Shown here one piece after another: positions 2,036-59,193 of a DNA stretch of 64,000 nt; within the stretch, counting starts at the first letter, position 1, and each line of letters opens with the position of its first letter. Source of the stretch: a virus; IMG/VR virus record IMGVR_UViG_3300032007_000018, positions 8,445 to 72,444 of that record; one strand, given 5' to 3'. The notes beneath the pieces are model-generated. The model searched no databases, was not told where the DNA came from, and saw only the letters and a list, made by a program, of their open reading frames with translations. A program made the position numbers and the translations under genes.

Positions 2036-2050
2036 TTAAAGCATAAATTA

Positions 2051-2087
2051 TGCGGGGTGGGTTAATCGCCCACTCCGCATTTTTTAT
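2051..2087 (+). terminator. Rho-independent terminator (stem tgcggggtggg/cccactccgca followed by a T-run).
   Basis: Inverted repeat plus TTTTTTAT immediately after the TAA of CDS 1769..2035. Confidence 0.7.
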
Positions 2088-2088
2088 A

Positions 2089-31821: not shown

Positions 31822-32415
31822 ATGGATCAGCTAAAAACAATTAAAGAACAATTAGTTATGTAGGTCCAAGGCCAAATGGGTGATTTACGCTGCGTAGATA
31901 CCGAAGAACTTGGCGACGTAATTGATATGATTAAAGATCTTGCAGAAGCAATGTATTACTGTTCTGTAGCAGAAGCAATGGAAGATGCTAAAGAAGGTGA
32001 AGAAAAACGCCAAACTTATTATTATATGGAGAAATATTTACCTTATTATCCATATAATGGTAGAGAGGGTGATTATCACGACGGTAGAATGTATTATAAT
32101 GGTGGTTCTTCTTCTGGTTCTGGTGGTAGCAGTCAAGGAGGGTCTCAAATGAGCGGTGGCAGTAGCAACTACTACGAAGAAACTTATCCTATGATGCACG
32201 ATGAGCGTGAAGGTAAAGCTGGATAGAAGCGTAAGATGTATATGGAATCTAAAGCTATGAATCACGATTAGCCAAAAAAGATTCAAGAATTAGATGAATA
32301 TATGAAAGAATTAACCAGCGATATTACAGAAATGATATCTGGAGCTTCCCCAGAAGAGAAAGCACTATTGCAGCGCAAGATGAACACTTTAGTAACTAAG
32401 TTACAAAATGTTTAA
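31822..32415 (+). CDS. Tyr/Gly/Ser-rich low-complexity protein (197 aa, 3 TAGs).
   Basis: YYYMEKYLPYYPYNGREGDYHDGRMYYNGGSSSGSGGSS... In-frame with track ORF 31876..32226. Confidence 0.45.
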
Positions 32416-32719
32416 GATTAATGGGGTTTGGTGGGATGTGAAAAAAGTCTCACCAAACCATCCAAAAGTACGAAGATAGAATGGTTAGTATGCGCTTGCG
32501 GCATGCGATGATGATACTAAAACCATTTATCTAAGTTGGAGTATTCCAAAATGGAAGCTAAAAAAAGTTCTTTGCCATGAGATTACGCATGCGGCAATGT
32601 TTAGTTATAATGTCTATATGACAGTTGATTAGGAAGAGTTAGTAGCCGATTTAATTGCGACTTATGGTGAAGAAATTATTGAAGTAACCAATAGAATTTT
32701 CAGTAAAATAGCAAAATAA
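32408..32719 (+). CDS. Small Zn-metallopeptidase (HExxH; ImmA/IrrE- or SprT-like), 103 aa, 3 TAGs.
   Basis: ...KVLCHEITHAAMFSY... It overlaps the upstream gene by 8 nt. Confidence 0.55.
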
Positions 32720-32721
32720 AA

Positions 32722-32760
32722 AAGGGAGATACCTTTATGGTATCTCCCTTTTTTTTTATT
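32722..32760. terminator. Bidirectional terminator (agggagatacc/ggtatctccct with A-run and T-run) at the convergence point of the + and - modules.
   Basis: Read from sequence. The - strand fibre gene stops at 32759. Confidence 0.7.
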
Positions 32761-34063
32761 ATCTAATTCTAATCCAAACTCGATCTTTTACTTCAACATT
32801 TCCAGTACCCCACGTCTCATAATCGGGAACTGCACTAATTGTGCCAATAATACGACTTGGATAATCTTTTTCTTCCTCTGGCGTCATAATTGAAACTGTA
32901 CCATTTGGGCCAGAACATACAGGTTCTCCAATATGCTTGCGGAATTCTTCTCTGTCTTCATACGGGTAAGCTAAAACACGCCCAGAAGAAGCAATAGGTG
33001 TTTTACAATTATCTGTTTCACCGATTGCGAAACCAAAAGTATCTGAAACTATTTCACAACCAGGTTGAAGTCTATTATCAGTTAATACGAGAGTATCATC
33101 ACCAACTTCGCGTACACAACGACCTGGTTCTAAAACTTCTGATTGACGATATTCTGCATAGTCATTCCATACTGCGCCGTAAACTTTTGAAGCATATACA
33201 TTTGTTAAAGCAGTGCCACCATTACAAAAACGGTAAGCTGAAATCGTAGCACTAGATGTACCATCTGCCCACTTATATCCTACATGAATAGTATTACTAC
33301 TAGAAAATTTATTATTAAATCTTATTTCATTTGTTGAAACTAAATTTAAATAATTTGCATAAGTAGCAGTCGTTGCGGTTGCTGCGTTACCAGATAAATT
33401 TGCTACTTTTAATGTTTGAGTCGAAGTCTAATAAGCAAAATTATCATCGTAAGCTGGACGGCCGGTTACATTATCATTATAAGCAAACCAGACTCTTCTC
33501 CATGTTGCACTAGATGATGCTGCATCTCCAGCAGCTAGATTTGTTAATTTACTTGCTGTTGCGGCATTACCAGAAATGCTAATCCCCCAAGTGCCACTGG
33601 CATTACTACCATCGGTAGCAGCTAATGTTTTAGAAGCACTTGGCAAAGTATAGGTAGCTCCACTTGTACCAGATATTTTCATGTACCATTTTGGATTATC
33701 ATCTGTTGCACCGCTACAACTAGTTCCTCCAAAAGTGACAATCGGCTGGCTATGACAACAATCTAATAATCCTCTAGTGTCATTGCATCCCCACACGAGA
33801 GATGCACTATATGTCGCACTATTCCAAGCAGCTGGACTATTATTGTAAGCTATCGCAATAGAGGGTGAATAACCTCTACCATTAAGAGTTGCCCATCCTC
33901 CAGAAGATAATGAACCAGTATAGGCTTTAATATTAGCTTGTAAATAATATGAAGTTGCAGTAGGAACACCATTATTTATATAAACAGGTTGCGTTCCACT
34001 ACCATATGTATTAACTAGTTTTTTTGCCTCATGGGATGTAAATAAATTTGACCCAGTAGCCAT
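32759..34063 (-). CDS. Tail fibre protein (434 aa). It reads through the TAG at 33428 into a 222-aa C-terminal extension.
   Basis: Track ORF 33428..34063 plus in-frame continuation to TAA 32759. RBS AAGGAGG. Gly/Ser/Thr-rich fibre-like sequence. Confidence 0.55.
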
Positions 34064-34080
34064 ATTAATTCACCTCCTTA

Positions 34081-35874
34081 TTACGATACATCCGCAGATG
34101 TAGCATCGGAAATCTCAGAACCGCGAATAACAAGAATATATCCACTTACATTGCCACCTACTGCAACGGTGGTATTTAATGTAATCGTACCTGCAGTACT
34201 GCCAGTTCCAGCAGAAGTCCAAGTGATACCTGCGCCCAGATTAGATTCTCCGCTAGTAATAATAATTTGAATTACATAAGAATTTACAGTAAAGGAAGCG
34301 TGAGTTAATATAACACCTTTCTTTCCACTATTAATTGTGAAAGGAACTTTCTAAACAATGGAAACTGCTGTTGGAACACCATCATTCCAGTAAACTGGAG
34401 TATAAGCATCGCCATAACTATCTGCCGTACCTATATATAATTTTTGCCATTTATACGTTGTATTACCAAGTGTTTGAAAATTGTTTGCCATTGGTAATAA
34501 ACTACCCGCGAGTCTTTCATTACCATTCCAATCAAGGGTTCTGGCATTGGACTTACTAGAACTATCAACACCATTACCAACAATTTCAACATAAGATCCT
34601 CGACTTGCTGAATCATTGCCATGTCCAGTATCAGGTTTATTATACTATCCAAAAACATGCTAAACAGCAGCCTCAGCAGTAGTATAATATCCTTCTGCAT
34701 GAGAATAATTACCACTAGCAGTTGTATGATATCCTTCTGAATGAGAGCCAGTACCACTAGCAGTCGTATTATCACCTATTGCACTTGAGCAATCGCCACT
34801 AGCAGTCGTATAATACCCCTCTGCATGAGCGTAAGTGCTCGCTGTCGTATGATCGCCCTCAGCATGCCCACACCAGCCATTAGCCGTAGTAGATAGTCCT
34901 TCGGCATGGGTAAAGCGACTACCAGCAGTGGTTGCATATCCTTCTGCGTGAGCATAATCATTTGTTGCATTGGTGCTTTCTCCTTCTGCATGTGAAGCAT
35001 ACCCCGAAGCTGTCGTATAAGAACCTTCTGCATGAGCACAATAGTTGCTGGCTACAGTAGTACATCCTTCTGCATGAGTATAATTACCACTAGCGGTTGT
35101 ATCATATCCCTCAGCGGTTACATATGATCCTAATGTAGTTCCAGATTTTTGCCCGCCGTTTATCCAACCACCGATATGTTTTGAGTCAGGAATAATAACA
35201 ATTCCACTATCGGCAAAAGTGCCATGAGTATCATTGTAATAGGCGATTGCATTCTATGTTGTTGTTAAGTCAGCAGCTGTAGCCGTTGCGGAATTACCAC
35301 CATAGCTTGTAATAGCTGTTGGGACGCCTGCATTCCAATATATTGGCTCTGTAGATGAACCATAGCTATCTGATGGCAAATTCCAGTTAGCCATAATCCA
35401 TCCAGGATTTGAACCACCAGTTCCCTCGGTATAAAAGAAAATAATAATAGAACCGGCATCCCAAGATTCCACCGAGGTATTACCTGCGGCTTTACCAAAA
35501 CATTTATAAATTGGTACACTATCTTCTTCTCCATTAATGATTAATTCTGGATTTTCTGCGCTATTTTCGTGCGCAAAATAAACAGCGATCATTGAACCAA
35601 CTTGTTGAGTCCAACCTTCTGTAGCGATAGTAATTTCTTTAAATCTTAAAGAGGCCGCAGTATTGCATACCGTGTAAGGTAGCATAAGTCCAGTCGTTGC
35701 AACATCAGAAAATTTACTATTTAACGGTACTCTGGTACCGGTTGTAGTACCATTACCATCCGTATCAATGTAAAATTTATTTGTTGTTGCATCAAAATAA
35801 CAATATCCTTTATTATATGTAGCAGGTAAATTGTTATTTGAATCAATATTGTTAAAAATCTTAAAGAGTGCCAA
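34081..35874 (-). CDS. Tail fibre protein (~597 aa) with ~10 tandem 14-aa YadA-head/Hep_Hag-like repeats (..SHAEGY.TTASG.Y..) and about 5 TAGs.
   Basis: Track ORF 35254..35874 (TTG start, RBS AAGGAG) continues in the same frame to TAA 34081. The track ORFs 34431..35039 in this span are spurious alternative frames of the repeats. Confidence 0.55.
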
Positions 35875-35917
35875 TCTTCAGCAACTCCTTTCTATATAAA
35901 TCTATTCTAATTTATAT

Positions 35918-35998
35918 AAAAAAAAAGCCAAATCTCATAAAGAGATTTGGCCTATATAAAAAAATTTAAAGGGAAAGGATAATTCCTTTCCCTTATGT
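35918..35998 (-). terminator. Two tandem rho-independent terminators on the - strand (ggccaaatctc..gagatttggcc+T9 and aagggaaagga..cctttccctt+T-run).
   Basis: Read from the reverse complement, downstream of CDS 36000..36218. Confidence 0.5.
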
Positions 35999-35999
35999 A

Positions 36000-36218
36000 T
36001 TAATCATTAAAAGCCTGGTATTCAGCAACTTCATCAATGAATTCTTCAATATCAGCTAAAATGGCAGCTCTGTTGTTTGCATAGGTATCACTATCATCAA
36101 TATTGAAGCTAATATTAAAGTTGTTACCAGCACGGCTACCACTAAAATAGCCAATTTGAGCGCCATTAATAATGCAAGCGCCACTATAATTAGTATTCTT
36201 TGAATCGAGTCTAAGCAT
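36000..36218 (-). CDS. Hypothetical 72-aa protein.
   Basis: ORF track; RBS GAGGAGG. A TGCTATAAT extended -10 element lies on the - strand at 36258..36266. Confidence 0.5.
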   Translation of the reverse strand: MLRLDSKNTNYSGACIINGAQIGYFSGSRAGNNFNISFNIDDSDTYANNRAAILADIEEFIDEVAEYQAFND

Positions 36219-36318
36219 GGAAAAACCTCCTCGTTTATTATATATCTATTATAGCAAAAATTTCTTTTATTGTCAATATAAAAACATGGGGAAGAGTTAA
36301 AACCCTTCCCCATAATAA

Positions 36319-36966
36319 TTATACATCTATCCAATAAACATTGCGCTTATTGATTTCATCAATCTTCTGATAGATATTCAATACTTCGCTTGGAGCGATC
36401 TGATAATATTCCTCATTCAGAATTTCTGTGCCAATGCCATAAAGAACCTTACTTGTCGCTGGCAAAGTAGAAAGATTATAAATAAACTTTGTATCGCCAT
36501 CTGGAATATGCTCTTGACCATTATTATCAATATAGCTTTGAGCTACCGAATATTTGTCGATACGATAGAAGCGGAAAGAGAAGGTTACATCGCCTGGATA
36601 AGTAGTAACATTACCACTAATATTCCAAGGAATAATCATCTGATTTTCAAGTGGGCCACCAAAAGTGTCAGTATCAAAATAAGGAACATTATAAATATAA
36701 CTTTCATTATTTGCGTTAATATACTGAACAACGCAGGTGGACTTAGATAAATCATAGTTGTCATAATAACGATCAACTACAAAGTACAATGTTTCAGCCT
36801 TATGGTCATGTGCCACACTTAAAAACTCTGGAGCTTCAATCTTTCTTGTATTTAAATCTATCTTATAAATTCTTTCAGTTGAGGGTAATAAGATCGCATT
36901 TTGTGGAGCGTTTTCATCTTGAACTCTATATAAAAGACGATTATACTCTTCTACTGGAGTAATCAT
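36319..36966 (-). CDS. Virion structural protein (215 aa). Its N-terminal domain is paralogous to that of CDS 37001..39172.
   Basis: ORF track. Shared segments IDLNTRKIEAP../..YFVVDRYYDNYDLS../..VTFSFRFYRI. Confidence 0.55.
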   Translation of the reverse strand: MITPVEEYNRLLYRVQDENAPQNAILLPSTERIYKIDLNTRKIEAPEFLSVAHDHKAETLYFVVDRYYDNYDLSKSTCVVQYINANNESYIYNVPYFDTDTFGGPLENQMIIPWNISGNVTTYPGDVTFSFRFYRIDKYSVAQSYIDNNGQEHIPDGDTKFIYNLSTLPATSKVLYGIGTEILNEEYYQIAPSEVLNIYQKIDEINKRNVYWIDV

Positions 36967-37000
36967 TTGTTATTCGCTCCTCTCTATTATTAGACTTCAA

Positions 37001-39172
37001 TTATGGGTTAACGAAGTTATAGAATGGAGTATAGTCAGAGTTGGTAGCTCCATTAAGATGGTTTGTCATAATGCAATAATAATATCCAGACTCTTCTGGT
37101 CTAAATGTTGCACTAGTCTCACCCTCGAGGAGAGTATCGGTCTCAGGCTCATACTCAGGAACATCTTCCTCGTCGCCCAAAGTAACCTTGTACCATTGAT
37201 AAGTTTCATCATCGGAATGAATAATATCAGTGCTGAGGGTTACGCTCTGACCGACGATCTTCTGGAGTAATTGAATACCACCATAGTTGGCTCCAAGAGG
37301 CTCAAGCAGGATTGGCTTCTCTGGAGCGGCAGTTACACGATAAGGCTTGCTGTACTTCAATGCCTATGCAAGGTTACGATTGTTAATAACCTTAGCATAG
37401 AATACCTTATCATAATTAGCAAAATCATCGGCGGAAACACTGACCTCATAAGAATCGGCAAGAGCATCAGTAATCTTATATTCATCAGCAATCATTCCGC
37501 CAGCGTCTGGAGTTTCAGAATAAATCTGAGTGCCTTCTAAGCCATTATTATCTGCCTTATACCACTGATAAGTTAATTCAACAAGAGGGGTTGGAAGATC
37601 TTCGGCTTCTGCCTCTGCGATTTCTGGAGAAACAGCAGTTACATGAAGTTCAGCAGTGCGGCTATCACGATCTAAGAGAACATGAATAATATTTTCTTCC
37701 TCATTCACAGCATTATATTCAACGCCAGTAGAGCTTTCAACAGTATTCTCAGATTCTTCTGGGAGAATCTCTGGAATGTAAGGCATAGGAATGATAATTT
37801 TATAAGAATCCAAAGAGGAAACTTTGCCAACGCGACGATTTACAGCAACAACGTGATATACACCCGCGCTTGTAGCAATACCAGTAGAATGTCTCTCATA
37901 AAGAGTGATATTAGTACCATTGACTGTGATTTGACTATTCGCGTCAATAACAATACTGGTATCGGTTAAAGGATATGGTTTATATCCTTGGATATGGTCT
38001 GGAACCTCATGCCCCTCATCGTCTTTTACGTAAGCATATTCAGCAACGTAGTAAACTCTAGAAGGATCTCTTGGACCAGGCTCGGCAGGCTCATAAAGAG
38101 CATTATTAACTAAAGATACAGGAATATCTTCGGAGGCAATATTTCTATTTGCGTCGATATCAGAATGTAACCAGTTATAGCTAATAGCTCCATCGCCAAC
38201 AGCATAAGCCTTCATTACATAGCCTTTTGCAGGAACAGCAACACCATTAACCACAGTTTCCTGTAATGTCTGGAGATCCTTAACGAGATACTTCTTAGCT
38301 GCGAAATCTGCTGCTGCACGAGCTGCAGCCTTAGCTGCGATTTCTTCTTCGGTATCATCAGGCATTTCATCAACTGGACCATAAATCTTTTCGAGAGTAG
38401 CAATATCAGCAAGATTGATAATCCACTCTGGAGCACCTGGATTAGGAATAGATGGGTCAGTAAGAACACTATTAACGATACGGCTAAGGATTAAATCATT
38501 GTGATTTACGATATCAAGCTTTGTATTCTTACCATGAAGGTCATAATCAAGAGAACCATTGATTTTAGCTTCGGCGGTAAGAGTATTGAAGTTATAAGTA
38601 AGATATGGCTGAGATACTGCTTGACCATTATCAGCTGTTACAGTTCTCTCACCAATCTTATAGAAACGAACAGAGAACTTTACTATGCCAGGATTGTTGG
38701 TAATTTCACTAGAAAGAGGCCAACCAAAAATTAATTTACCTGGACGAGAAGAAATATCACGAACAAACTCACGAGATACACCAGCAATCTTATTAGAGGT
38801 CTCCCATTGAATAGCAATATTCATGGACTTATCGCTTAAGTCTGTAGCGTCAAAGAAACGATCAATGGTGAAATAAACTACTTCTGCAATTTCATCACCC
38901 TGAACACCAATACCGTTCTTTGCAAAAGAAGCAGGAACGTTAATTTTACGTGTATTGGCATCAATATCAAAAGTCTCTTCATCTACAGGAAGCATAGTGT
39001 AATATGCGCCCTCTGGTGTTTGCGCAAGATCCCTTAAATAAAGAAAATACTCTTCAAGAGTAGTAATTTCAGAGTCGCTAGTAATGACTTCGTTTGCACG
39101 TAAAACAGCTGTTGCCTGCTCGAAACGAGTATTATAAAGACCTCTGTTACTACTATCAACATAAGTAATCAT
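37001..39172 (-). CDS. Virion structural/fibre protein (723 aa) with Ig-like repeats (TYQWYK x2) and a TAG at 37364.
   Basis: Track ORFs 37364..39172 and 37001..37360 are in the same frame, joined across TAG. Confidence 0.55.
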
Positions 39173-39278
39173 ATTACGCTTTCATCCTTTCTTCAAGTTT
39201 ATAAGATTGGGCGAGGGCAGAACCCTCGCCCTTAACTTACCTTTTCAACATATATGAAAAGGATTTAATTTAAGATAA

Positions 39279-39491
39279 TCAGTTTTGGCCTGTAACGTAG
39301 ACCTCTCTCCATTTAGAGGCTTCTTCTTCTGGTACTTTAATAGACTTTACTTTCTGAGTACCATTAGTGAGAACCTTATTTTTATCCGCGATAAGAGTTA
39401 CCAAACGAACAGAATAAATACCTTCTAAATGGACAGGAGATTCAATTACACCATTAGTTCCAAGGTAACGATAGATAACTTGTTGCTTCAT
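39279..39491 (-). CDS. Hypothetical 70-aa protein.
   Basis: ORF track; RBS AAGGAGG. Confidence 0.55.
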   Translation of the reverse strand: MKQQVIYRYLGTNGVIESPVHLEGIYSVRLVTLIADKNKVLTNGTQKVKSIKVPEEEASKWREVYVTGQN

Positions 39492-39509
39492 AATTATTTA
39501 ACCTCCTTA

Positions 39510-42500
39510 TTAAAGTGGTAAAAACTGCTGATTTGGGAAATACTCGAGGTTAATACTGATTAACTCAAGGAAGTTATCCCAGTTTGCAATAGCAGGAGAC
39601 TTCCAAACTATAATAGAACCGCTATGATTATTCAATTCACCATCGAGTCCTGTTGCACCACCAAATAGGTTCTCGCCTATGGTAGAAAAGTCTTGAGTAC
39701 AAGGTTCAGCTTCAGTACCAAAAATAATAGTTGTAAGATTTCTTAAACCACCAAAAGCACCTTCATCATAAGTATAACTATGACCTGGAATTGACAGATA
39801 TTTGATCGATTCACAACCACCAAAAACAACTTGACCGATTGTTGTAACCGGCTCTAAGAAATCGTACATAAATGCGCCTTCGGCAGTATCTGTACTCATA
39901 AAGCTAGTGCATCCAGAGAATGCATTATCTCTAATAGTCGTACAAGTATCAGGCATTTCAAAATATACTAGATCAGTATCGCCAGCGAATGCCTCCTAAT
40001 TAATTGCAACAAGCCCACGGCCTTCACGAGCCCAGAAGATATGAGTTATATTATTTTCTTTTCCTCCGGCCTTAGAGAAGCCAGTTCGCGCAATTGACGT
40101 GATGGTTGTTCCGCCAATAGAAGTAGGAATTGTAATCTTGCCTTCAAGTACATAATTAGTGTTCAGAAGAATAGAAGAACCATTTACTATTTGGAAATAC
40201 TTTTCATCAAGAACATCATCGTAGACACTAACGTCTGTATAGATTGCTATAAATGAGCGATTTCTATCTGGTGAAAGAGTAGTTAAATCTACTCTTGATT
40301 GAGTTCTATCATTTGGATCTGCCCAATGAGAGAATTTATATTTTCTATATAACCCAAGTTCACCATTTTCTGTTAAAGCAGAATCTGCAATATCATATGG
40401 CTTAGTTGGAATTACAGAAGGTGTATTAAGACCAGGAGTTGCTTTCCAGTCGGTAGTGATTACACGCACTGGTTTGCCGTCGTCAAAATCAAAAGAAGTT
40501 TTATAAGCGTGAGGTCTAAAAATAGCGTACAAAGTGATAATAGAATTGGTTTCTGGATTAAATGTCATTTCTTCTGCGTAGTCATCAAAATGATTAGTAA
40601 ATGTACCGCCCTCATTATGTGCATCATCATTTGTGTAGGTAAACGAAGAAACAATCTTTGTACCAGCAGTATCAAGAGACCAGCCAATGAAATCATGATA
40701 CTCTCTTTCTGGAATTAAGGTTACATCAATAGTAGGCTGTTCTGTAATAGTAGGATCCAACTTATTGACCTATAATTCTTCTTCTTTACCACTATCATTT
40801 ATTTGTACAAACTTTGAAATAAACGATTCAATAACATTAGCAGCGTAGATATTTAAGTTCGGCCAATATACTTTGTATTTAGAAGTGAATTTATCTTCAG
40901 CGATTTTATGAGCTGCGTCATTGGAAACATAAAGTTCACCTGTAATAGCAGGAACGGAGCATGCGGCGGAAGGATTTTGGAATTGAGTTTCGACGCCTTG
41001 AACTTTTGCAGTTTCCATAGCATCAATAAAATCATCTAACATATTAAGATTGGTAATAATCTTTTCTTGTACTTCACCATTATTTGGATCGGTATTATAA
41101 TTCTCATTATAAGTGTAAATCTTACCATTTAATAAGTTATAATCCCAATCTTCGGTAGTTGAGTAAGAATAAGGCTCAAAAGTGCTGTGGTCGTTAAGAC
41201 GATAATAAGTAATATTTTCATCGTAACGTTCTCCTTCTTCTGCCTGGATATAAGGAGACCAGTTAACATCCTTTAAGGAGATAACTACCTGCTTATTAGT
41301 CTGACTAATAATACTTACTAAATTGGAAAGAATCTTATAAGAGTCATAACCTAATCCACCACCGCTGATTGTAAGAGAAGTAATGTTGCAATCTACACCG
41401 GCACTACCATCGTAGTCGGTAAGGTTCTCAACGTACAAACCTCTATAGGTAGATGGATCGGCATAAATAACCTTATCTTGAGCATCAAGTGTAGCTACAA
41501 CAGGTTTTGAAGTAAGAATTCTTGTTAAATCCTTATTCTCAACGAACTGTAATGTAGAAATGGACTTAGGTAAATGTACTGTGTGTAATGGCGCACCATT
41601 AGCAAAATATACATTCTGTAAGCCAGTATTTAATGCTCTGAATTCCTCTAACTTCTCAGAACCTTGAGTATCAACGGTTCCGCGCAAGGAAGTAATTCCA
41701 GTGAAGATAATCTTCTTTAAGAGGGATTTCTTTGTGGTACTATTTGGACCATCAGCGATAGTGAACTTGCCACCATCACCGGCCTTAAGCAAGTTGTTCT
41801 TATAACCAGGTACGTCGCTGCCGAGAGTTAAATCAAGGAGACGCTTACCAGCAGTTAAAGTAAACTCGCTGAAATAAGAAGTACTTAAGTCGCCAAGAGA
41901 GGAGAGGTAATCAACACCAGGGAGATATACCAACTGCTCATTAGGAGACTCTGGATCTGTCTTATAAGTCTCAATAGTATCAGCGTTAACAGAAGTCCAA
42001 ACGCCATCTCTCTCGTCTGTAGTTGCATTATACTTTACAGGAGCGCCAGGTACTTCATCGGTAAAGAATGTAACGTACTGCTTCAAAAATGGCTTGAGCT
42101 TGAATCCTGGGCGAGAATCGAAGTAGTCAACAGGATAAGTCTTGGAAAGGAATCCATCATACTTTGTATTACCGTTAGCTACTTGTTCGTCAATAGTTGC
42201 TTGTGGAACATCAAGATAGGTATCAGATGTTTGAGTACCACGGTTACCATTTACACGGCCCCAGAATTGACCTTGTTTTACGGCATTAATCTGATAAGAA
42301 CCACCGAGCCACCAAGAGTCAATATAATTCAAACGGTTGCGAAGGAGTAATTCAGTTGTAAGTTTCTTATCTCCTTGGCAAGCATAAGCGTACTCTGGAG
42401 TATCTTCAACTATTGTCTTACCTTCGGTATCAAAGTAACCAGTTTTAGTGGTTGCGAAATATTTATAATATTCATCAAGTCCAATAGCAATAATAGGACG

Positions 42501-45500
42501 AATACCTTTCATTGCATAGGAACCAAATATTTCTGGATTGCACTCATAAGCACCAGTGATTTTTTCGTAGGTGAGGTTGTTAACAACTCTAGAACCATCA
42601 TTGGCGCCACGAAGAGCACGATATTTATTTTTAATATCTTCTTCAAAAGCTGTAAAGAAGTTGTTCCAAAGAACACTACCAGGAGTAGAGAACAATCCGT
42701 CAAGAGTTACGTCAGCATCATAATCCCAGAGGTAAGCACCAGAGTTATTAAGGCCAAGCTAAGTATCAATATCATAGAAGATAGGATACCATACATAATC
42801 TCCTCCAGCCTCACGAGGACCCCAAGATGCAATCATCATATTCTTACCACGAGAGTCGTAGCAGAGAAGAAGTTCAGTGAGGATAAAGTAGATTAAGCAA
42901 TACTCTTTATCTAAATGCTTTGGAAACTCATTGCGGAATTTCTCAATACGATATCCAGCAGTATCTTTAGAGAAGGTAGTATTATAATAGCTAATAGAGT
43001 AGGTATAATATGTAACACCATCTGCGAAGGCGTCAATATTTACTCTCTGGTAAGACTCTCCTACTTTGATATAATACTCTTCATCGCGGTCGAAAGATAC
43101 ACCCTATGCCACTGCATTGTAACCTACTACCGGTTCAGAACTTTCGCCTGCGGCAGCATATGCAGTAGGAGTTTTCCATGTTACTGGAGTAATCTAACCA
43201 TTTGTAGCAGTAGAAGTATCTGTGGAGTCAATCCAGTCAAACAGAACTTCGAGGTTAGCATACTTAGCTCTGATGTATTCACTCTTTTCGGCATCAGTAG
43301 TACCGATTTCCGCAATAATATCTTCATCGCTTGTAATACCATCGTATTTACCATCTGCGCCAATAGCATCAAGCTAATCGCCATATGGAGAATAACGATA
43401 TTCGAAGTGACGAATAACTTCTAAGCGATTTGGATTATCTGGCCATGTAGTACCAAAACGAGTAGCACGTGCGGCCGCATTAGGATATTTCCAAGAAGTC
43501 CAAGTGCCTTGATTATCAGAAAGCTCCCAGCACTCAGCGATATCTTTAATAGTAGGATGATACTGTTCGGTTGTAGTTTCACCAGTGTTTTCATCGGTTA
43601 CTTCTCTTTCCAAGGTAAGATAAGGCTGAGGTGTTTTTAATTCAAATCCGTAATATTCATTAGAACCCTTATCAAGATTCATATTATAACGGCCAATATA
43701 CTCATAAGTTGCTCCTGGGTTAGATTGGTTATAAGAACCATCTGCGTACTTATGGAATGTTAATACAGGAAAACCATAAACAGAAGTTCTATAATTAGAA
43801 CCATCAATACCGAGGTCATCAAGAGGATGCTTGGTGTAAAGAGGATATTGTGGATTACCTAACAAGTTAGCAAAACCAGTGTTATAAGTTCCAGAAGACT
43901 CCATGTAGTCAATCTTCCAAGTGAATTTATTAGTAGCAAGCTCTTCATTATCCATATGGAATGTCTTGGCAATTTTGTGAGATACGCCATTCTTATCATT
44001 GACATAATGATCCTCGGTTAAGCTCTGTCCAGCGAGAGAACCCTTAGTATATACCCAAGTTTTTGCCTTCTTGAACTTGGTCTTGTAGTTACGGCGTGGA
44101 TAGCCCTGTGAAGAAGTACCCTAAACGTCAATATCTACTCCAGTAGCAGCATAGCTAGGACAATGAGTGTAATACTCAAATTCATCTATATCACCATTCT
44201 CAAGAGCTTCGTCAAGAGATGGATTTACAAATTCAACATCAACTTTGCAAGCATCACCCTTGAAGTAAGGTAACTTCTCATTGCGGCTGGCGTTAGTAAT
44301 AGTCCAAATCGCATAAGGCATGGTAAGTGCGCCCGGGTGATTCTCATTATATTCTTTAAGCAAATCGAAAGATAAGCAAGTTGGTGTTCTTGCCTCGGTA
44401 AGCTGGTTTTGGTCATAAAGTGTAATGTTGTGTAAGTCAGAAAGGTAATTATGAATTACTTCTGGCATAGTTAAACCAGTTCTAAATACACGGAATCTGT
44501 AAAGGTCGATATCGCAATATTTAGAGTTGAATAAGAATGGGCTTGTAATACGGAAAGCACCACCCTGGCTTGGAAGTGAATCTGCGCCAGAAAGGATACC
44601 ATTTAAGTAAATGTAAACAAGACCCTCAGACTTAGAAATAACAACAGAAATGTTGATAACTTCATCTTCTTTATAACGAACACTAACGATACCACGAGGA
44701 GAGCGGAAGTAAGCTTCCTGTGAACCAATAACAAGACCTTCGTTATTATTATTCATCCACTTACAAATAACACCCTCTTCAGTCTTATAGGACTTCTGAA
44801 CATCCTCGGCCATTAATGGACTACCATATTGGTCGATGACTAACTCTTTATGGTTTTCATCAATCCAAGACTTCAAAGCAGGCTCTGACGCTTGAGCACC
44901 AAGAGTGCGAGTGTAATAAGTTACTCCCTCTTCAAATTCTGTGATCTGCACTTTATCATAGATATTAACATCTGGGCGTTTTACATAATAATCAATACTT
45001 GAATCAAATTCTGCATTTTCATCAACTTCATTATAACTATCTTCATAGTAATAATAGAGTGGCAAACTTTGAACAAGTGTAGAATACTCTTGAACATTAC
45101 GAATTCTAAATCTCATTTCGATACTGAAATCATTATCGTAATTAAGATAAATAGAATCAACAGGAATGGAAACAGTGGCTCCATTAGTAAGAGAAAGATA
45201 AGTTCCATTGTCAACGCCATTGATTGTTACACCATCATTGCGCCAACCATTGTTCTGCCAGTTAAATCCAGTTAATGTAGCAGGAGTATCGTGGATAGTA
45301 TCTTTCCAAACACTACGTGTACTTTTAATTTCAGAGTTGGAACGACCGGCCGCACTGAAATTTGTGAGCAAAGTTACAGCCTGGCGCAAACCTAAATCAC
45401 GAGAACCTTCTTTAGTTACTGTGATAGGAATATCAACTCTTGTACCGCGGCAGACGATAGCAAATGTCTGCTGGCCTACTGTGTATGCGCTAGTGATATC

Positions 45501-46793
45501 CCATAACCACCAGTCGTCGGCTTTATAGGATTCTTCACTTTCAAGAAGTTTAATACCATCTTTGTATTTATAAACAGTAGCAGGCAAATTATTTCTATCC
45601 TTGACAGGATCATAAACCATGTACTTAATGTAAGAGTTCTCATAGTTTATAATTAATGGATCATATCCACCAAGCCAAATGATAGGTCTATCTTCTCCTT
45701 CGGTTGCCCAAGCACCTTGGAACTCGATAGGGTCAGTATAAACTGTTTCACCATTTACAACTACACTAGCCTTTAACGCAATATTATGAACGCCGTGAGA
45801 CTGACGAGGAATAGCAATAGTGTCCTTTGTTCCAAAGTAGCTAGCAGGAATTATTTTGCTCTTGGAAATCAATTCCTCATTGTCAACATAAACATGAAGA
45901 GTTTCCTCAATACTTGGATCACCATGAGGAATATAATCAAGAGTTAATTCGCCTGCAAGGTTATCAGGCTTTACCAAGGGTAAGAAAGCACTCTCGTTAT
46001 ATTTTGTTAAATATACTTTAACAACTTTAACATTTGGAATAACACGCTTTGGACGCTGTGCTGGCTTCATTGTAGTGTTAGAAGAAGTTACCTTAACAGT
46101 AATAGTTAAGTTCTTACTTTCTGGAAGAGAAGCAGCATCAATCACAAAAGTCTTACCACTCTTATATGGAGGATAAGTGGTTTCATAAGTTTTATCATGC
46201 TCTAAATCATCAATAGTTACTGTAATAATGACATTGGTATCTTTAGTAGATGTAGCAACAAGGGTTAAGTCTTTTTGCTGACCATAAAGGAATGTGGCTC
46301 CATCGTAAAGCTCATTTCCCATTGTCAAAGTCAGATCTACATTAGAACCACTACCGCCGCCACTTCCACCGACACCAGAAACAGCAATTAAATTTAATTC
46401 AACTAAATTATTTTCTGCATCAGAGCCGGTTACTCGAAAGAAACGACCATCAGAGTTAATCACTAAAAGTCCTTTTTGAGGATATTTAGGATTCTCTTCA
46501 GAAGATCCTTCAATGGCAAAAACAGACATGGTATAACGGACATCGTCATCATCTTCTTCATTTATCTTCCAAAGAGTGGTAAGATCTTCGGCATCTTCCT
46601 CGGCGTCAGCCCAAACAAAACTGGAACCGCTACCAGTTCCATTGCCACCAAAGGTATAAGTCTCACCATCTTTGATAAGATAAATAAAACCAGTATCGTA
46701 AGCGAAATAAATATCACCATCGTGGCCGCTAGTCTGCATAACTTTTAAAAGGTCTGCTTCTTTGCCACGAATAGGTCTAAATATCTTTGCCAT
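39510..46793 (-). CDS. Giant tail-fibre/receptor-binding-like protein, 2427 aa. It has a phage-fibre N-terminal motif (RG..DL...GDIYFAYDTGFIYL), central beta-rich regions and a C-terminal BspA-type leucine-rich-repeat domain. At least 8 in-frame TAGs.
   Basis: Five track ORFs (44121..46793, 43374..43955, 40770..42695, 39996..40760, 39510..39956) are all in the same frame. I translated every gap and found it open apart from TAG. ATG 46793 has RBS AAAGGAG. LRR segment NAFSGCTSF...GAFGGLRNLTTIIF. Confidence 0.55.
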
Positions 46794-46939
46794 ATGTTTT
46801 CTCCTTTCATCTCAAAATATACAAAAAAGGGTATGAAGAAAAAGGAAACTTTTTCTCCATACCCTTTTATTTATAGAGTTATTTCCTCTAATAAATTCAA
46901 AAAATTTAAGAGGTTAATTAAAAACATTTGTCCGGAATA

Positions 46940-48736
46940 TTAGAAAGTACCCCAGTTGAAGTCAATAGTAACCTGACCGATTGCGCCAGCAGTACCAGCG
47001 GTACCAGAAGTAGAAGCACCAAGGGTTAAGTTATTAGAAGTGATTTGCATCTGACTAGAAGGAGAAGATACAGCAGTATCTTTATTACCAAGATAATGAG
47101 TAATAGTAGCTACATTATGATTACTGTCAACTGTAGCAGAGGTAGAGTGAATTGTAATGTAGTTATGAGTATCTTTTACTGTGATTTTCTTAGTATGTAC
47201 AGCTGTAATATGACCATAGGCATCGCGAACAATACCATCATCTGTATCTCCATTGCCAGCTAATACATAGAACTCAAGTGCGTTAGTTGCAGAAGCTGAG
47301 GCGAAAGTAGAACTTTGAACAGCGCCCGTAGTATCTTTGGTATCAACGCCATTACCCTTTGCAATAGATGCGTGAGAAACAGTAACTCTACGAAGCTTAC
47401 CGGTATTAGCATCGGAAAGGGTAATCATATTGCCTTCAATTAGCTCAATACCAGCCTCTACTGTTCCATTTGCGCCACCAGCCAATAAACGAACACCGTG
47501 TGTAATAAGCTCGCCAACATAAACAGGCTCATCACCAGATGGCACAAGTTCCCAAGTTGCATCATTGCCAGTTAACTTTCCAGAAGCATCTTCTGTGCCG
47601 GTAGCAATTAACAAGTCACCAGTTTTGATATTAAGAATATTAACTCCGGTAAATGGACCATTTCTACCCATCTTATAAGTGTCTCCAGCAGAGCAGTTAG
47701 ACAATGCAGGAACACCATCTGCGGTGGAGATAACACCCTTAAATTGCATAGCGTTAAATGCCTGTTTTGCTACATTGATTGCAGTAGCAATTGCGCTATC
47801 TGTTTCTGAAGTTGTATAAACATCGAGATCTGCAGTACCAAGAGCAAATTTAGCTTCTGTGGTATATGTTCCACTGGCACCACTACCATAATGAATTATA
47901 GGATCAATAGTGGCTCTATCATTTGCAAGATTATTATTGACATTAACGCCAACTTTCCAACCGGTGCCACTATCATGTGTCTCACTTGCACCATTTATAA
48001 GTTGACCAGTAATAGTAACTTGTCCGGCAGTAGCAGTATCAACGTCAACGCGATTGCCAATAAGTTTTACTTTTTGAGTGGTAGTACCATCACTTAAAGT
48101 AAGATAATGATTTTGAGCATCATCTTCGCTGCTTACTCCAAGAGTATATGTCGTATCGGCGGAAGTCAGAGTAATAGTTTTAGCACTATTATCATAAGCA
48201 ACTGTCAAATTACTAGAACCCAATAGTTTCCAAGAATCGTTTACAGAATGGCCTGCGCTATCAGTAACAGAAGTTCCGATATTAACCGCATTACTATTGC
48301 CACTAACCGAGGTCAATGTATGTGTTAAAGAAGTATTGGTTGTATTAGTATTTAGCTATACCCAAGTGCAAGTTCTATCGCTATCGCTTGTGCCCTCTAC
48401 CTTCGCGCAAACACAAAGGATGTTTTCATCCTCGGCATAGTAGAAATCGCCAATATTGGCTGTATTAGGAAGATGGTCTACATCTTCAACAGTGGTAACA
48501 CCTTCATTAACAGGAACAGGAACAATCTTAGAGCTGTCAGATGCCAACTTACGACCAACATACAGACGAGAAGTGTCAGATGTTAAATAAAAAGCACCTT
48601 CAACAGCATCTTGACTAGATATTAAAGCATTTAATGCTAATTGAGTTCCCTGTAAGAACTTAATGCCAACATTACCTGCGTTAGCACTAAATAAGCTATA
48701 TTTATTTTTAATGTTTTCTCTATTTTTAATAGCCAT
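46940..48736 (-). CDS. Tail-fibre-like protein (598 aa) with the N-terminal fibre motif (GAFYLTSDTSRLYVG) and a TAG at 48356.
   Basis: Track ORFs 48356..48736 and 46940..48316 are in the same frame; RBS AAAGGAG. Confidence 0.55.
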
Positions 48737-48752
48737 TTATATAACTCCTTTC

Positions 48753-49814
48753 TTATTCTTCATCATCATCGGGAAGATTCTCCCAAATAATACGATCATT
48801 AATCGCATTGATTTGATTATTGATTTTAGTAATTTCATTAACAATAGTTGTATTTTTAGACAAGATGCTATTTAAATCACCAATAGCCGCATAATTAACC
48901 AACTTTGTTTCAATATCACTTACTCTTGTAACGAGTCCCTTTTGGATTACATTGTTAGAAACATCTGTCTAATCAAAAAGAACATTAGAAATTGGTGTTA
49001 TTTGATTGCGGACATATGTTTTAGTAGCATAGGCAGAAAGGTTCGCGCCAGTTCCACCAAAAGAACCAACTTTTTCGAGTTGTCCATCTATAATCAAATA
49101 TTCTTCATAGTGATCATCTTCCGTGTCGGTTCCATCGGTCTTTTTCACCATAAAGATTTTATTAACCGCTTCAAGACTGGAAGTATCAATATCGTCTGTA
49201 CTATCAACTATAGTTCTGGATAAAGCGGTAGGTTGAGGAATCCAGATAAGATTACCATCAGAATCTACACTAGCAATATTGCCAGGGTTAGCCTCTAAAA
49301 TACCCTTAAGTGCCACTTTACCATTAGAAGTCTCTTCTAATGAACCGGAGTGTAAGGTTACTTTAGGAACAGGTGTCCAGACACCATCGCCACGTAAGAA
49401 TTTCCCCTCATCGCCCGCTTCTGGAGCTGGAACCAATCCGCCTTCACCATCGGCATAGGCGGTTGCCCCAACCATAGTACCAATCGCAGTATCAATAATC
49501 GTTGAAAGGTCGGCATTTACCCATTCGCCGTTATTATAAACAAGAATTTGTTTGTTGGCAAGAGGTATTCCATCTTCGCCTTCTAATACTACATCGCCTA
49601 AATCGCCAATAGAAAATTCACTAATAATAGTATTATTTCCATCAATAGAACCACTGATTAGTTTTTCACCAAGATACAATAAACCTTTAGTGGCATCGCT
49701 ATTATTATAGACAAAATATAATGTATCAGAATCTAAATGATGTGCCGCTTTTAAGCGTTGATAAGCTTCAATAGTACCACGGGAAAATCGAACATAATGA
49801 ACTGTCTCAGCCAT
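48753..49814 (-). CDS. Tail fibre protein with an Mtd_N-like N-terminal domain (HYVRFSRGTIEAY...DTLYFV) and a coiled-coil C-terminus (353 aa, TAG at 48969).
   Basis: Track ORF 48969..49814 extends in-frame to TAA 48753; RBS AAAGGAGAG. Confidence 0.55.
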
Positions 49815-49946
49815 ATTGTCTCTCCTTTCTTTAGATTATCCATTATAATATAAAAAGCAATATAAATAAATTACCCCAATCTGGCCTACTAAAAAAAACC
49901 AGATTGGGGTAAAATATTAAAGCAATGATTTACGATATTCTAATTC

Positions 49947-52871
49947 GCTCAACTCGTCTTTTGCAGTTGCTAAAGTATCTCGTGCTAAATTGATTAAGCC
50001 AGTAAAATTATTAGTTAATCTATTAATAGGAGACTAAGCTCCAATCATCTAATAAAGACGTAAAAGAAGCCCATTAATTGAGTTTCTACCATTATTAAAT
50101 CCAGTAATTTCTAATGCTGAATATTCATCCATCTCTATTCCAAGAATAATAGGCCATGGAATAGTATCGGTTGGTGTCTAGAAAGTCCACGGATAACCAA
50201 CACTATGCTAATTTAATAAATCCTGAAATACAACACAAGATCTTTTTACTGCATACTATCCATTTTCGCGCATACTAAAACTTCTATCTATTGTATAGAT
50301 ATCATTTTCATCTAATCTCCAATAGTAACAGTTCATCAAATAAAAATAAGGTACAATAGTAGAAGATATAATAGTATAATAGTCTGTAATGGGAGAAAAA
50401 TCATTTGCAGTCGCAATGCTTAAAGTAGTTTGACTTCTATAAAAATAATATTTATTATCAATAAAAAGGCTGTCCATAATGCTAGTTAATACAACATCCT
50501 AGAAGCGTTGAGCACTATCAAAAAATGATGCTGGCTATTTAGATAGCCATTCTTCAGTTACAAGATAGTAATTATTATCATTCTGATCATAAAAATAATA
50601 ATCCGTTTCTAATGTCCCAGGAGTAAATGAAACTGGAATTTTCTATTTAATATAATAACCAATTACATAAGTGCCTTCACTGGTCAGAACTGGTGTTAAT
50701 GTTTGTTCCAATTCTAAATAATAATATGTCTTAGAAAAATCTGGGATTAAACGAGTTTCTTTCTTTAAATCTAAAGGTGGATTAACAATTCCTTCATCTG
50801 CATAATAATAGTAAATATTAGGCTTATAAATATAACCGGCACCACCAGGACCAGGGAAATCATGAGTTTCACTAATCGTATAATAAGTTTTAGTAAGATC
50901 GGCAGACTCATCCGAAGAAAGAATAATATTTCCATTAGAGTCTAAAACATAATATGTGTCAGGAGTATAAGCATAATCAAAATTCATCGGTTCACTTAAA
51001 GCTAAATCTAAATAATGAGTTTCTTGGTCTGGCGTTATTGCTATTTCAAGTTGATAATCTGTGCCAACTCTTTTCCAATATCTATTAGGTTCATAATTTG
51101 CTAACTAAATAGGAATATATCCCGTTTCGGATAGGTCTTGATACTTTCTATAATAAGTTGCAGTGCTATCAAACTCGTTACTCCTATCATATGCAAGAAA
51201 TACATTTCCATCTATGGTAACATCCGCGTCACGCTAATTATTAACCACTTTATAATATACTAGTGGTCTCCACGTTTCAACATCTAGTGTGATAGGCTCA
51301 TAGTAAATATCAAATGGCGAAGTATAATTTAATATTCCTTTATAAAAATACTTATCTAATAATTCATAATAATATATTTTATCATAATCCCAATAAACTT
51401 CAATTTCCTATGCACTTGGAAGAGAATTATCTTCAGTATTAACAACAATAATTTGACCTAAACGATCATGTAAAGTATTTATTGTACCGGCTAAAGTGGA
51501 TAAATCACGAGTTTTTCCACCAAGACTATAATCTCCATTTTCAATATAATGTTGTTGCAATGGAGAATACCATTTAACATCCAATGCTCGTTTATGTTCT
51601 CCTGACTCCGCACCAGTGCCATATAGCATATCATAAACATCTGAAATAGCATTTCCAATAGCAGGTAAACTAATTGATAATTCTTGCATATCAGCACTAG
51701 CAACTTCATCTTGTATAAACTAAGAATCTTTATAGCGATTTTCAAAATTAGAACTTTTACCTGTTGGTGCAACTTTAATTTCATTAGGAGTAGATTCATC
51801 ATATGTTCTAATTGTTTTGTCAAATCCATCTTTATTATAGTAAATTGCACCATCTACTTCTTCTTCTTCTGTTTCATAATCTCCCAAAGAATAAAAGAAT
51901 GTTTTTTGTTTTATTTTTTCATCCGAGGGTTCTCCTTCTTCAGCACTTTTTATTCTAAAGCCCCAAGGAGATTGCATATGCATTTTATAAAATCCATCTA
52001 AACTATCGGCGCCCTAGAATGGAGCTACAGGCTCATCGGTTGGAGGTTCTGCAACAACTGCAATTCCAGGAGTTACAGGATTTAAATGAGCTATTAATAC
52101 ATAACGCTCATTTCCTTCACCAACAACCTTTTCCCAAACAGTGCTATCGTATCCACGATAAAGAATACCCCACGTATCATCGATGTCTTTATAATGCTTT
52201 AAATCAAATGTATATCTCTTAAAATAATTATCTAATACACTTTCATTATCTTCATCAGCTTGCGAACTATATAAAAATAATGGTCTAAATTTAGCCACAT
52301 CAGGATTAGATTCACTATCTGGACCAATACATATATAGAAATCATCGGTGTAAGCTAATGGTTCTGGATTATTAATATCGCTATTATTTGTTATACCATT
52401 ACATCTGCGATGAACTATTTCGCCTTGAGTAATACCGCTCGTTGAAGCAAGGACATGATCACTAGTCATTTTGTAGTATGATTCATGTTCAACAAAAGAA
52501 CCAACCTTATAATAAAAACCATTTTTTTGAATATAGTATTTATTTATATCTTCTGCCATAGGTTCTGCTACTAATTCATAATTAGTATAAACAAAAGGTT
52601 TAGTACACTACGCATCAGCATAGAGAATTAAATCATCATATGTAGTTGGAGATATGGTTTGATCTTGGCTATCAGAGTAAGCTACACGATAATCGCTACT
52701 AATAACACCAATGCTATTCAAATCTTCGTCATATCCATAACTAACTAAAACAAAACGACCTGGGGCAATTCCGTCTCTCTACATTCCATCTTCCATAGCA
52801 TATCGAGAGGTATAGATTTTATCAAACTAAAAAGTAGTATGAGTAGTATTTGTTCTATTACCATAAAACAT
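49947..52871 (-). CDS. Large virion structural protein (~974 aa), TAG-dense (>=10).
   Basis: Track ORFs 50256..50477, 50643..50987, 51408..51689, 51720..51983 and 52014..52559 are all in the same frame. The gaps I checked are open apart from TAG. ATG 52871 has RBS GGGGGAGGGA; stop is TGA at ~49947. Confidence 0.45.
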
Positions 52872-53224
52872 CAGTTATCTCCCTCCCCCTCATATACCAT
52901 ATCAACTATTATCCAGGCACTAGGATTATTTATAATATAATTCAAAGAAGTTTTATTAAATGATAGCCGTGCTATTCCACTTCCATCTGTAAAATCTAAT
53001 TCAAATAATCCCGTGTAATTTATAATGGCTTCTGTGTCAGAATCGTTAATATTAAAACGAGTTCCAGGAGGCGCTGAAATACCAAGTTTTATAATAGGAG
53101 CATATTTATCGAATAATGTTCCATCGCCCCATGCTGCAATTACATCATTAGCCAAACTAAATCTTGGCTCATTATTCATCGCTGATAAATTATAAAAACG
53201 AAATTGCTTAAATTTTTGCGCCAT
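52871..53224 (-). CDS. Hypothetical 117-aa protein.
   Basis: ORF track; RBS AAAGGAGGAA; TGATG overlap with the downstream gene. Confidence 0.55.
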   Translation of the reverse strand: MAQKFKQFRFYNLSAMNNEPRFSLANDVIAAWGDGTLFDKYAPIIKLGISAPPGTRFNINDSDTEAIINYTGLFELDFTDGSGIARLSFNKTSLNYIINNPSAWIIVDMVYEGEGDN

Positions 53225-53244
53225 AATGATTCCTCCTTTTTCTC

Positions 53245-58782: not shown

Positions 58783-58788
58783 TTTAGA

Positions 58789-58983
58789 TTAAGCCTCCTT
58801 TACTTCTGGAGAACTTGCATTCTTTTGCTCGCTTTCTGCGGTCTTAGCAATTTCAGTTACAACTTGCTCGAGAGCGCGGAGAGAATCGGTCATAAGGAAA
58901 CTACTCTCGCCCTTTGTATGAACCTCAAGAAGAGTGTTATAAATACGAGTAAGTTGAGTAAATTGTTCTTGTGTAATAGTCAT
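58789..58983 (-). CDS. Small 64-aa protein with GC3-biased (high-expression) codon usage.
   Basis: Inside track ORF 58789..59028. ATG 58983 has a strong RBS AAAAGGAG 7 nt upstream. Confidence 0.5.
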   Translation of the reverse strand: MTITQEQFTQLTRIYNTLLEVHTKGESSFLMTDSLRALEQVVTEIAKTAESEQKNASSPEVKEA

Positions 58984-59193
58984 AATCAAAAACTCCTTTT
59001 TTTCCATTTTTATATATAAAATACTCAAGCGAATCGAGCATATATACCATATTGATTCTATGCGGAAACATTAACCGTAAGAATTCCACTATTGTAATCT
59101 ATAACACGCGTTGCATTGTTTGGATTAGAATGTCTATCGCCGACTGGAGCGACAGGTCCTAGTTGAAAGCGTTCACAATATACCATAAACTAA

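Follow-up and report, generated by a model that had tools for sequence, protein, structure and literature searches.

We analyzed a 64,000-nucleotide stretch of IMG/VR virus record IMGVR_UViG_3300032007_000018 (positions 8,445 to 72,444 of that record; the whole of this stretch is referred to as the window), with emphasis on a giant gene on its minus strand at positions 39510–46793. Direct translation of this region gave one frame of 2427 sense codons terminated by TAA, within which there were no TAA or TGA codons and seven in-frame TAGs. The remaining two frames of the region held 79 and 289 TAA plus TGA codons, which excluded chance as the explanation for the open frame. Under the standard code the seven TAGs cut the frame into eight segments, five of which reached the length at which open reading frames (ORFs) were listed (at least 60 amino acids (aa); 44121–46793, 43374–43955, 40770–42695, 39996–40760 and 39510–39956). 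Because the end coordinates of these five ORFs are separated by multiples of 3, they lie in a single frame, and they were contiguous when TAG was read through, as a preliminary description of this DNA had proposed. The same description had considered the region to encode a single 2427-aa ORF if TAG specified glutamine, which was confirmed by the translation and by comparison with homologues, although the eight TAGs counted there proved to be seven.

Searches of 5.8 billion proteins identified approximately 80 full-length homologues of 2300–2600 aa, which were 27–67% identical to the window protein at a query coverage of 93–100%, the nearest relative in that collection being 67% identical. The gene is collinear with these homologues, which makes a chimeric assembly unlikely. 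In an alignment of the window protein with 81 full-length homologues, the TAGs at codons 891 and 1345 fell in columns that were Gln in all 81 homologues, against a background Gln frequency of 2.6%. The equivalent codons were CAA and CAG, respectively, in one related locus (L001, 65% identical) and both CAG in another (L002, 28% identical), and among 76 IMG/VR loci the equivalents of codon 1345 were CAA in 48, CAG in 27 and TAG in one. Since the DNA of the relatives itself reads CAA or CAG, the Gln at these columns is not an artifact of the translation table. In L002 the standard code suffices to read the orthologue as a single ORF of 2475 codons without internal stops, and TAG was likewise absent from the gene in at least 14 IMG/VR loci. 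The L001 orthologue contained 24 in-frame TAGs, every one of them at another position than those of the window gene, which argues that truncated products are not conserved or selected and that selection acts on the full-length protein.

The use of TAG as a sense codon was not restricted to the giant gene. Reading TAG as sense fused fragments into long ORFs across the window and on both strands, and reading TGA or TAA as sense did not. TAG was present within 37 of the 48 modelled window genes and was the terminator of none of them. Together, these comparative data indicated that TAG is decoded as glutamine in this phage; GVDIDVQGTSSQGYPR is an example of a stretch of the giant protein that spans a TAG site read as Gln. 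Synthesis of the full-length protein would need an amber-suppressor tRNA-Gln, presumably encoded elsewhere in the phage genome. Unsuppressed translation would end at codon 891, a short way into the CotH-like domain described below, and only the anchor, Ig and LamG part of the protein would be produced.

The largest and best-conserved element of the giant protein, which the preliminary description had overlooked, was a central region resembling the CotH family of kinases. Several motifs in this core were invariant in all homologues, namely VQGTSS (890–895), YPRRN-K-K (898–906), K960/D962, DSRGKN (1313–1318) and FYD-x-DTQLG (1339–1347), and the best-conserved stretch of the family was aa 1301–1350, with a mean column identity of 0.84. 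The core region received no confident name from Pfam or PHROGs. In the distant homologue P0091, the CotH domain was identified above the Pfam cut-off (44 bits, aa 987–1274), and hhalign of the window family profile against P0091 aligned 978–1407, spanning this CotH match (probability 99.8%, E 4e-30). Sub-threshold Pfam CotH matches were found in seven of 13 family members, the best of them at E 9.2e-6. An AlphaFold model of the region from the homologue P0001 (67% identical) had a predicted local distance difference test score (pLDDT) of 72 and a predicted template modelling score of 0.71, and its top Foldseek match in the PDB was the Bacillus cereus CotH kinase (5jda), with a target-normalised TM-score of 0.52. 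Among the PDB comparisons CotH was reached by structure only, as HMMER searches of PDB sequences with the CotH-region and N-terminal profiles returned nothing significant. Based on these sequence and model comparisons, we assigned the best-conserved core as a CotH-family kinase-like domain.

The remainder of the protein was modular (Table 1). AlphaFold of the exact window sequence of aa 1–480, with 14 homologues, produced a model with a mean pLDDT of 82.8, in which a beta-rich domain, a short disordered linker and three Ig-like beta-sandwiches followed one another. In BFVD, Foldseek matched this N-terminal model to structural proteins of phages in which Ig, Big or fn3 domains are abundant, and additionally to gp353 of phage G and to "spore coat protein-like" proteins of crAss-like phages. 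The LamG-like domain that probably follows was recognized through the homologues, in which Laminin_G_3 scored 25.3–27.8 bits against the Pfam PF13385 cut-off of 27.6 (P0091 being above it at 27.8); the match in the homologue P0074 projects to window aa 671–779, and no LamG Pfam match was found in window aa 1–814 at E<=0.05. C-terminal to the core, a putative leucine-rich-repeat (LRR)-like segment included a stretch (aa 1706–1750) that was 44% identical to the LRR region of P0091 (E 1e-7). The Flg_new-like repeat that comes after it was likewise matched in P0001, and F-x-GW...YA-x-F units continued past it to approximately aa 2200. We also considered a classical fibrous shaft (coiled coil, beta-helix or triple beta-spiral) and rejected it, as the monomer model of aa 1–480 was globular and the rest of the protein belongs to globular families. 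The product had been called fibre-like, and this wording had to be abandoned: the AlphaFold model and the LamG-, CotH- and LRR-type modules point to a chain of globular domains.

Table 1. Features of the giant gene and its immediate surroundings (window coordinates).
Feature	Position	Strand	Remarks
70-aa ORF	39279..39491	-	Begins 18 nt past the giant stop; Y-x-YLGTNG...P-x-HLE...WRE; same-position orthologues in L001 and L002
Giant coding sequence	39510..46793	-	2427 codons + TAA, TAG=Gln; full-length homologues 2300–2600 aa; standard-code orthologue with 0 internal stops
BspA-type LRR, aa 2264–2377	39663..40004	-	Pfam LRR_5, 44.9 bits (cut-off 27.7), E 1.3e-11
TAG codon 2266	39996..39998	-	Start of the LRR_5 domain; from frame translation and homologue alignment
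Flg_new (Listeria-Bacteroides)-like repeat, aa ~2013–2054	40632..40757	-	19.4 bits, sub-threshold (cut-off 27)
TAG codon 2008	40770..40772	-	Variable alignment column, mainly D or E
LRR-like segment (putative), aa ~1560–1860	41214..42116	-	L-x-x-L periodicity by eye
CotH-family kinase-like domain, aa ~875–1500	42294..44171	-	Variable insert at aa ~1140–1280
TAG codon 1345	42759..42761	-	Q of DIDTQLG
TAG codon 1230	43104..43106	-	Variable insert; from frame translation and homologue alignment
TAG codon 1200	43194..43196	-	Variable insert; from frame translation and homologue alignment
TAG codon 1140	43374..43376	-	Gln in 34 of 81 homologues
TAG codon 891	44121..44123	-	Q of VQGTSS
LamG-like (concanavalin-A-like) jelly-roll (putative), aa ~501–800	44394..45293	-	Poorly conserved insert at aa ~601–650
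Three tandem Ig-like beta-sandwiches, aa ~151–460	45414..46343	-	AlphaFold2 pLDDT 80–95, all-beta
Gly/Ser-rich linker SGVGGSGGGSGS, aa 139–150	46344..46379	-	Model pLDDT <50, disordered
N-terminal beta-rich domain, aa 1–138	46380..46793	-	AlphaFold2 pLDDT 70–87; candidate virion-docking module
Shine-Dalgarno sequence AAAGGAG	46801..46807	-	7 nt 5' of the ATG at 46793–46791; read from the sequence
Terminator-like hairpin	46825..46868	-	20-pair stem + T-run, between the 598-aa and giant genes; consensus scan only
598-aa fibre-like gene	46940..48736	-	Upstream; shares the N-terminal module; syntenic in 66 of 67 relatives examined
353-aa gene	48753..49814	-	Upstream; related N-terminal module, C-terminal coiled-coil-like tail

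The BspA-type LRR that had been noticed at the C-terminus was confirmed as Pfam LRR_5 (PF13306), the sole above-threshold Pfam domain in the giant protein. The homologues scored above or close to the LRR_5 cut-off, and the PDB sequence matches of P0001 were 4fs7, 4gt6 and the Treponema protein TpLRR (6mlx). Windowed comparison with the closest relatives revealed a steep gradient, with identities of 88–97% in the core versus 18–40% in the last ~230 aa. A conserved N-terminus and core together with a variable C-terminus fits a receptor-binding protein, and we infer from this gradient that the variable LRR end is the receptor-binding tip. Of the earlier view of the product as a candidate receptor-binding giant fibre, the adhesin role thus appeared plausible, given the variable C-terminus and the tail-gene surroundings described below, and the fibre did not.

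At the opposite end of the protein, the motif GDIYFAYDTGFIYL was located at aa 26–39, within a conserved module (RG...G-x-YFA-x-DTG-x-IYL, aa 8–44) of which G26 and D33 were invariant in the family. A strict regular expression for this type of motif matched the giant and 598-aa proteins only, with 0.1 matches expected by chance. Profile-profile comparison by hhalign aligned the first ~40 residues of the giant and 598-like families (probability 87%, E 3.8e-6) and the N-termini of the 598-like and 353-like families (probability 93%, E 3.6e-7); the giant and 353-like N-termini gave a weak match (E 1.8e-3). Significance was reached only with neighbor family profiles, built from at least 60 syntenic loci, as the giant N-terminal profile gave marginal values against the single neighbor sequences (E 0.011 and 0.085). 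The proposal that the motif is common to the two upstream fibre genes therefore held for the 598-aa gene and only transitively for the 353-aa gene. Its designation as a phage tail-fibre anchor motif was supported as far as the sharing with neighbors is concerned; no curated family matched it (Pfam returned nothing for the N-terminal module at E<=0.05). From its position and its sharing, the ~40-residue module is a candidate dock to the virion or tail.

The gene order around the giant gene (986/117/984/353/598/giant/70/723 aa) was kept in L001, L002 and approximately 66 IMG/VR loci. The 986-aa neighbor matched the PHROG "tail protein" family phrog_1887, and the L002 orthologue of the 984-aa gene matched Phage_fiber_2, both of which are weak annotations. 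PHROGs and Pfam scans of ten neighboring genes and of a 1657-aa partial ORF otherwise returned almost exclusively "unknown function" or no match, and no tape-measure protein was identified among the neighboring genes in these scans. Together, the matches and the gene order placed the giant gene within a predicted tail/baseplate module. The 70-aa ORF downstream of the giant gene possibly encodes an assembly chaperone or factor, or an adaptor, for the giant protein. Upstream, the terminator-like hairpin is directly 5' of the ribosome-binding site of the giant gene and may keep its expression below that of the fibre genes before it.

Searching 1.84 billion representative proteins with a profile yielded 2154 proteins related to the CotH-like region, including 756 at E<=1e-30, and the top matches were nearly all 2100–2900 aa proteins with the CotH-like domain at the same place. 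In IMG/VR, 336 loci of the family were found, mainly on contigs of 110–195 kb. Among species-representative genomes, close relatives occurred on contigs binned to Ruminococcus (75% identity), Erysipelotrichaceae, Clostridia and "Mollicutes" metagenome-assembled genomes of rumen and animal-gut origin. Less closely related CotH-like domains (~30% identity) that contain VQGTSS and YDSRGKN (L091, L098, L109, L132, L139, L158 and others) were chromosomal in Bacteroidales, Segatella copri and Chryseobacterium, the taxa represented being Segatella copri, Bacteroides, Tannerellaceae, Dysgonomonas, Zongyangia and many Chryseobacterium. Megablast of the giant gene against 50,697 GenBank phage records returned no match, and with tblastn the CotH core alone was aligned, the matches being to Hankyphage, phage G and a small number of virome contigs. 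By these searches, a close relative is absent from cultured or annotated phages. The window polymerase (1336 aa, DnaE/PolIII-alpha type, 18737–22747 on the plus strand, with no in-frame TAG) was 38–39% identical to those of the Enterococcus phages VRE9 and EF1 and to YorL of Bacillus SPbeta, a kinship that is consistent with a Firmicutes host.

In seven relatives (L003, L005, L006, L022, L026, L034 and L038) the orthologue was open only with TGA as a sense codon. These genes had 2085–2634 codons with 3–17 TGAs and no TAG, and 39 of their 59 aligned TGA positions matched Trp in the window protein. Together with the orthologues described above, these alignments indicated that a single gene family is shared by phages that use the standard code, TAG=Gln or TGA=Trp. 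Mixed-code clades have been reported previously (bioRxiv 2021.08.26.457843), which matches the standard-code and TGA=Trp relatives found here, and readthrough under code 15 has been proven by proteomics in gut phages (PMC9523058). In other recoded gut phages (code 15; crAss-like, Lak and the gemstone clades of Borges et al.), in-frame TAGs are likewise concentrated in structural genes and located at Gln. The window differs from these in that replication genes carry TAGs too, among them many on the plus strand (e.g., seven TAGs in 2050–3078 and eight in 4604–5521).

CotH kinases (PF08757; B. cereus 5jda/5jd9, Bacillus subtilis CotH) are approximately 360 aa, whereas the window domain is approximately 630 aa with an insert of ~130 aa and, unlike CotH, is one of several domains in a phage protein of 2427 aa; identity in the structural alignment was 11%. 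Proteins of the same kind are known from uncultured gut viromes. Three of these in UniProt (A0A8S5P140, A0A8S5LCC4 and A0A8S5LDI4) have the same N-terminal Ig-like array (Foldseek E 1e-12 to 1e-21) and are auto-annotated as "Spore coat protein H kinase fold", "Spore coat protein" or "Leucine-rich repeat protein", but their sequences differ from that of the window protein. PHROG 14959, the same kind of giant phage protein, matched window aa 672–1051 (E 4.9e-61). Bacteroides Hankyphage p00 and Bacillus phage G gp353 share the CotH core (tblastn 33–36% identity over ~110–135 aa, E ~1e-14), and gp353 also shares the N-terminal fold of the window protein. In sequence, however, only the core of these proteins aligns; they belong to unrelated lineages and have other architectures, such as a tip formed by a C-type lectin diversified by a diversity-generating retroelement versus the BspA LRR here. 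Benler et al. pointed to CotH kinase domains of phages, fused to hypervariable C-type lectins, as unstudied. The family to which the giant protein belongs has likewise been catalogued and remains functionally unstudied, and the window protein is a further member of it. With respect to BspA-type LRR proteins (Treponema TpLRR 6mlx, Bacteroides 4fs7), the C-terminal ~115 aa of the window protein are above the LRR_5 cut-off, but the window LRR is a short, fast-diverging array at the tip of a phage protein, whereas the BspA-type relatives are bacterial surface proteins.

The preliminary description regarded the giant gene as very sensitive to suppressor availability. This is correct in a relative sense, but its TAG density (2.9 per 1000 codons) is at the low end for the window, compared with 12.8–17.5 per 1000 codons and up to 29 TAGs per gene in the tail genes at 49.9–64 kb. 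TAG accounted for 11% of its Gln codons versus 27–44% in the genes at 49.9–64 kb. At a hypothetical 90% readthrough per TAG, the yield would be 48% for the giant gene (0.9^7) and 5% for the neighbor with 29 TAGs (0.9^29). These values form part of a sharp shift in TAG density and base composition within the structural block, between 32759–49814 and 49917–63998 on the minus strand. The genes at 32.7–49.8 kb had 0–7.5 TAGs per 1000 codons and a GC content of 0.37–0.39; those at 49.9–64 kb had the higher TAG densities given above (with the exception of the 117-aa gene, which had none) and a GC content of 0.30–0.33. A fibre/adhesin module that was acquired or exchanged more recently may account for this shift.

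Other features of the window were also recorded. A 534-aa protein (34081–35685, minus strand, four in-frame TAGs) contained roughly a dozen HAEG-x-x-TTAS-type repeats in tandem, which recall those in the heads of trimeric autotransporter adhesins, and matched PHROG 25468, of unknown function, at E 1.7e-33. An ORF of at least 1657 codons with 29 in-frame TAGs (59025–63998, minus strand) runs off the window end and had no PHROG match. Its C-terminus contains Gly-rich G-x-I-x-GG-x-I repeats resembling a beta-helical spike, and it may represent the hub of the baseplate or a central spike and not a tape-measure protein. Gene orientation flips from plus to minus at ~32000–32760, where the cumulative GC skew peaks (2.20 at 30–34 kb), which is consistent with divergent arms of replication or transcription.

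Based on the evidence from the frame, the homologues and the domains, 39510–46793 is a single gene in which TAG is read as Gln. We consider it likely that it is a late gene of a gut or rumen phage of the Firmicutes type and that its product is a modular virion adhesin of the tail tip or baseplate. The order of domains is a ~140-aa beta-domain, a flexible Gly linker, three Ig-like domains, a probable LamG-like domain, the CotH-like domain, a putative LRR-like segment, Listeria-Bacteroides-type repeats and a distal BspA LRR. In such a protein the N-terminal ~40-residue module would dock the protein on the tail, and the hypervariable BspA-LRR tip would bind the host surface, aided by the lectin-like and Ig-like modules.

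In B. subtilis CotH, the substitutions D228Q and D251A abolish activity, D228 being the catalytic and D251 a metal-binding residue (PMC7821199). In the giant protein, D1313-SRGK-N1318 and D1341-I-D1343 are invariant and lie within the Pfam CotH match (profile positions 155–230), and these motifs suggest that an active site may have been conserved. Since the core is the most conserved part of the protein and keeps Asp/Asn motifs like those of the catalytic and metal-binding loops of the kinase, we think that it probably retains a nucleotide-dependent activity. We speculate that the domain would phosphorylate a partner in the virion or envelope inside the cell, while ATP is present, in a manner similar to that of CotH in spore-coat assembly. 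The broader proposal, that the core is an active tail-borne phosphotransferase in hundreds of giant tail proteins across three codes, targeting virion components during assembly or the host envelope during adsorption, is a tentative one and we regard it as rather doubtful.

Several observations weigh against parts of the interpretation of the giant protein as a tail adhesin with a CotH-like core. The Pfam CotH match of the window protein itself (17.2 bits, E 0.0038) is under the cut-off of 23.8, the structural match to 5jda has a Foldseek E of 0.21, and the CotH model is that of the homologue P0001 and not of the window sequence. The motifs D1313...N1318 and D1341/D1343 are like the catalytic and metal-binding Asp of CotH in order and approximate spacing, as mapped by motif order alone. 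Kinase action on the host surface is hard to picture for an exposed tail protein with no obvious extracellular ATP. The assignment of a tail module is based on a few weak matches and gene order. In addition, ARAGORN found no tRNA genes in the 64-kb window and none in the 27 kb around the orthologues in L001 and L002.

The strongest competing explanation shares the tail adhesin and differs only in the core, which would be catalytically inert and act as a scaffold or ligand-binding module. Proteins of the CotH family are known in such settings: the CotH-family invasins of Mucorales are adhesins, and CotH-dockerin proteins are located in extracellular cellulosomes. On the other hand, homologues with no more than 27–67% overall identity all keep the VQGTSS loop as well as the D-x-x-x-x-N and D-x-D motifs unchanged, a pattern more like that of an active site than of a scaffold. 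We give this explanation slightly less than an even chance.

A second possibility is that the full-length protein is non-structural, an internal kinase effector that modifies host or phage cytoplasmic proteins and merely lies inside the tail block. The best-conserved part being enzyme-like, with intact catalytic-type motifs, the requirement of kinases for intracellular ATP and the poor annotation of the neighboring genes would all be in line with this. However, the N-terminal module is common to the adjacent fibre-like genes, the Ig-like array and the LamG-like, Flg_new-like and BspA LRR modules are typical of exposed adhesins, the variable C-terminal tip is typical of receptor-binding proteins, and the synteny of the baseplate/fibre block extends to ~66 relatives, so we consider an internal effector unlikely. 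Lastly, a standard-code reading, in which the five ORFs are individual polypeptides terminated at TAG and the long frame is a decayed or split gene, agrees with the five ORFs given by translation table 11 and with the lack of a suppressor tRNA in the window, but is effectively excluded by the comparative data, namely the 2427 codons free of TAA and TGA, the two TAGs on invariant Gln, the unbroken orthologues in standard-code phages, the in-frame TAGs in most long window genes and the later fragments having no ribosome-binding site of their own and often no start codon.

The giant gene represents a clean, checkable case of amber recoding. As two of its TAGs lie on invariant Gln residues and its orthologues are found in three codes, the gene would be a useful marker for following code switches, and the fragmentation of such genes by standard gene callers is a warning. 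These findings also draw attention to a large family of phage tail proteins of ~2400 aa that are most conserved at a CotH-like domain and not at the receptor-binding tip, the variable BspA-LRR tip being a candidate determinant of host range. If the CotH-like domain is inactive, the family would be a further case of the CotH fold being reused in extracellular assemblies. If it is active, phages of Firmicutes from gut and rumen would have a tail-associated enzyme of a new kind, and if the proposal of a tail-borne phosphotransferase is correct, these proteins would form a class of tail-protein enzymology undescribed for phages.

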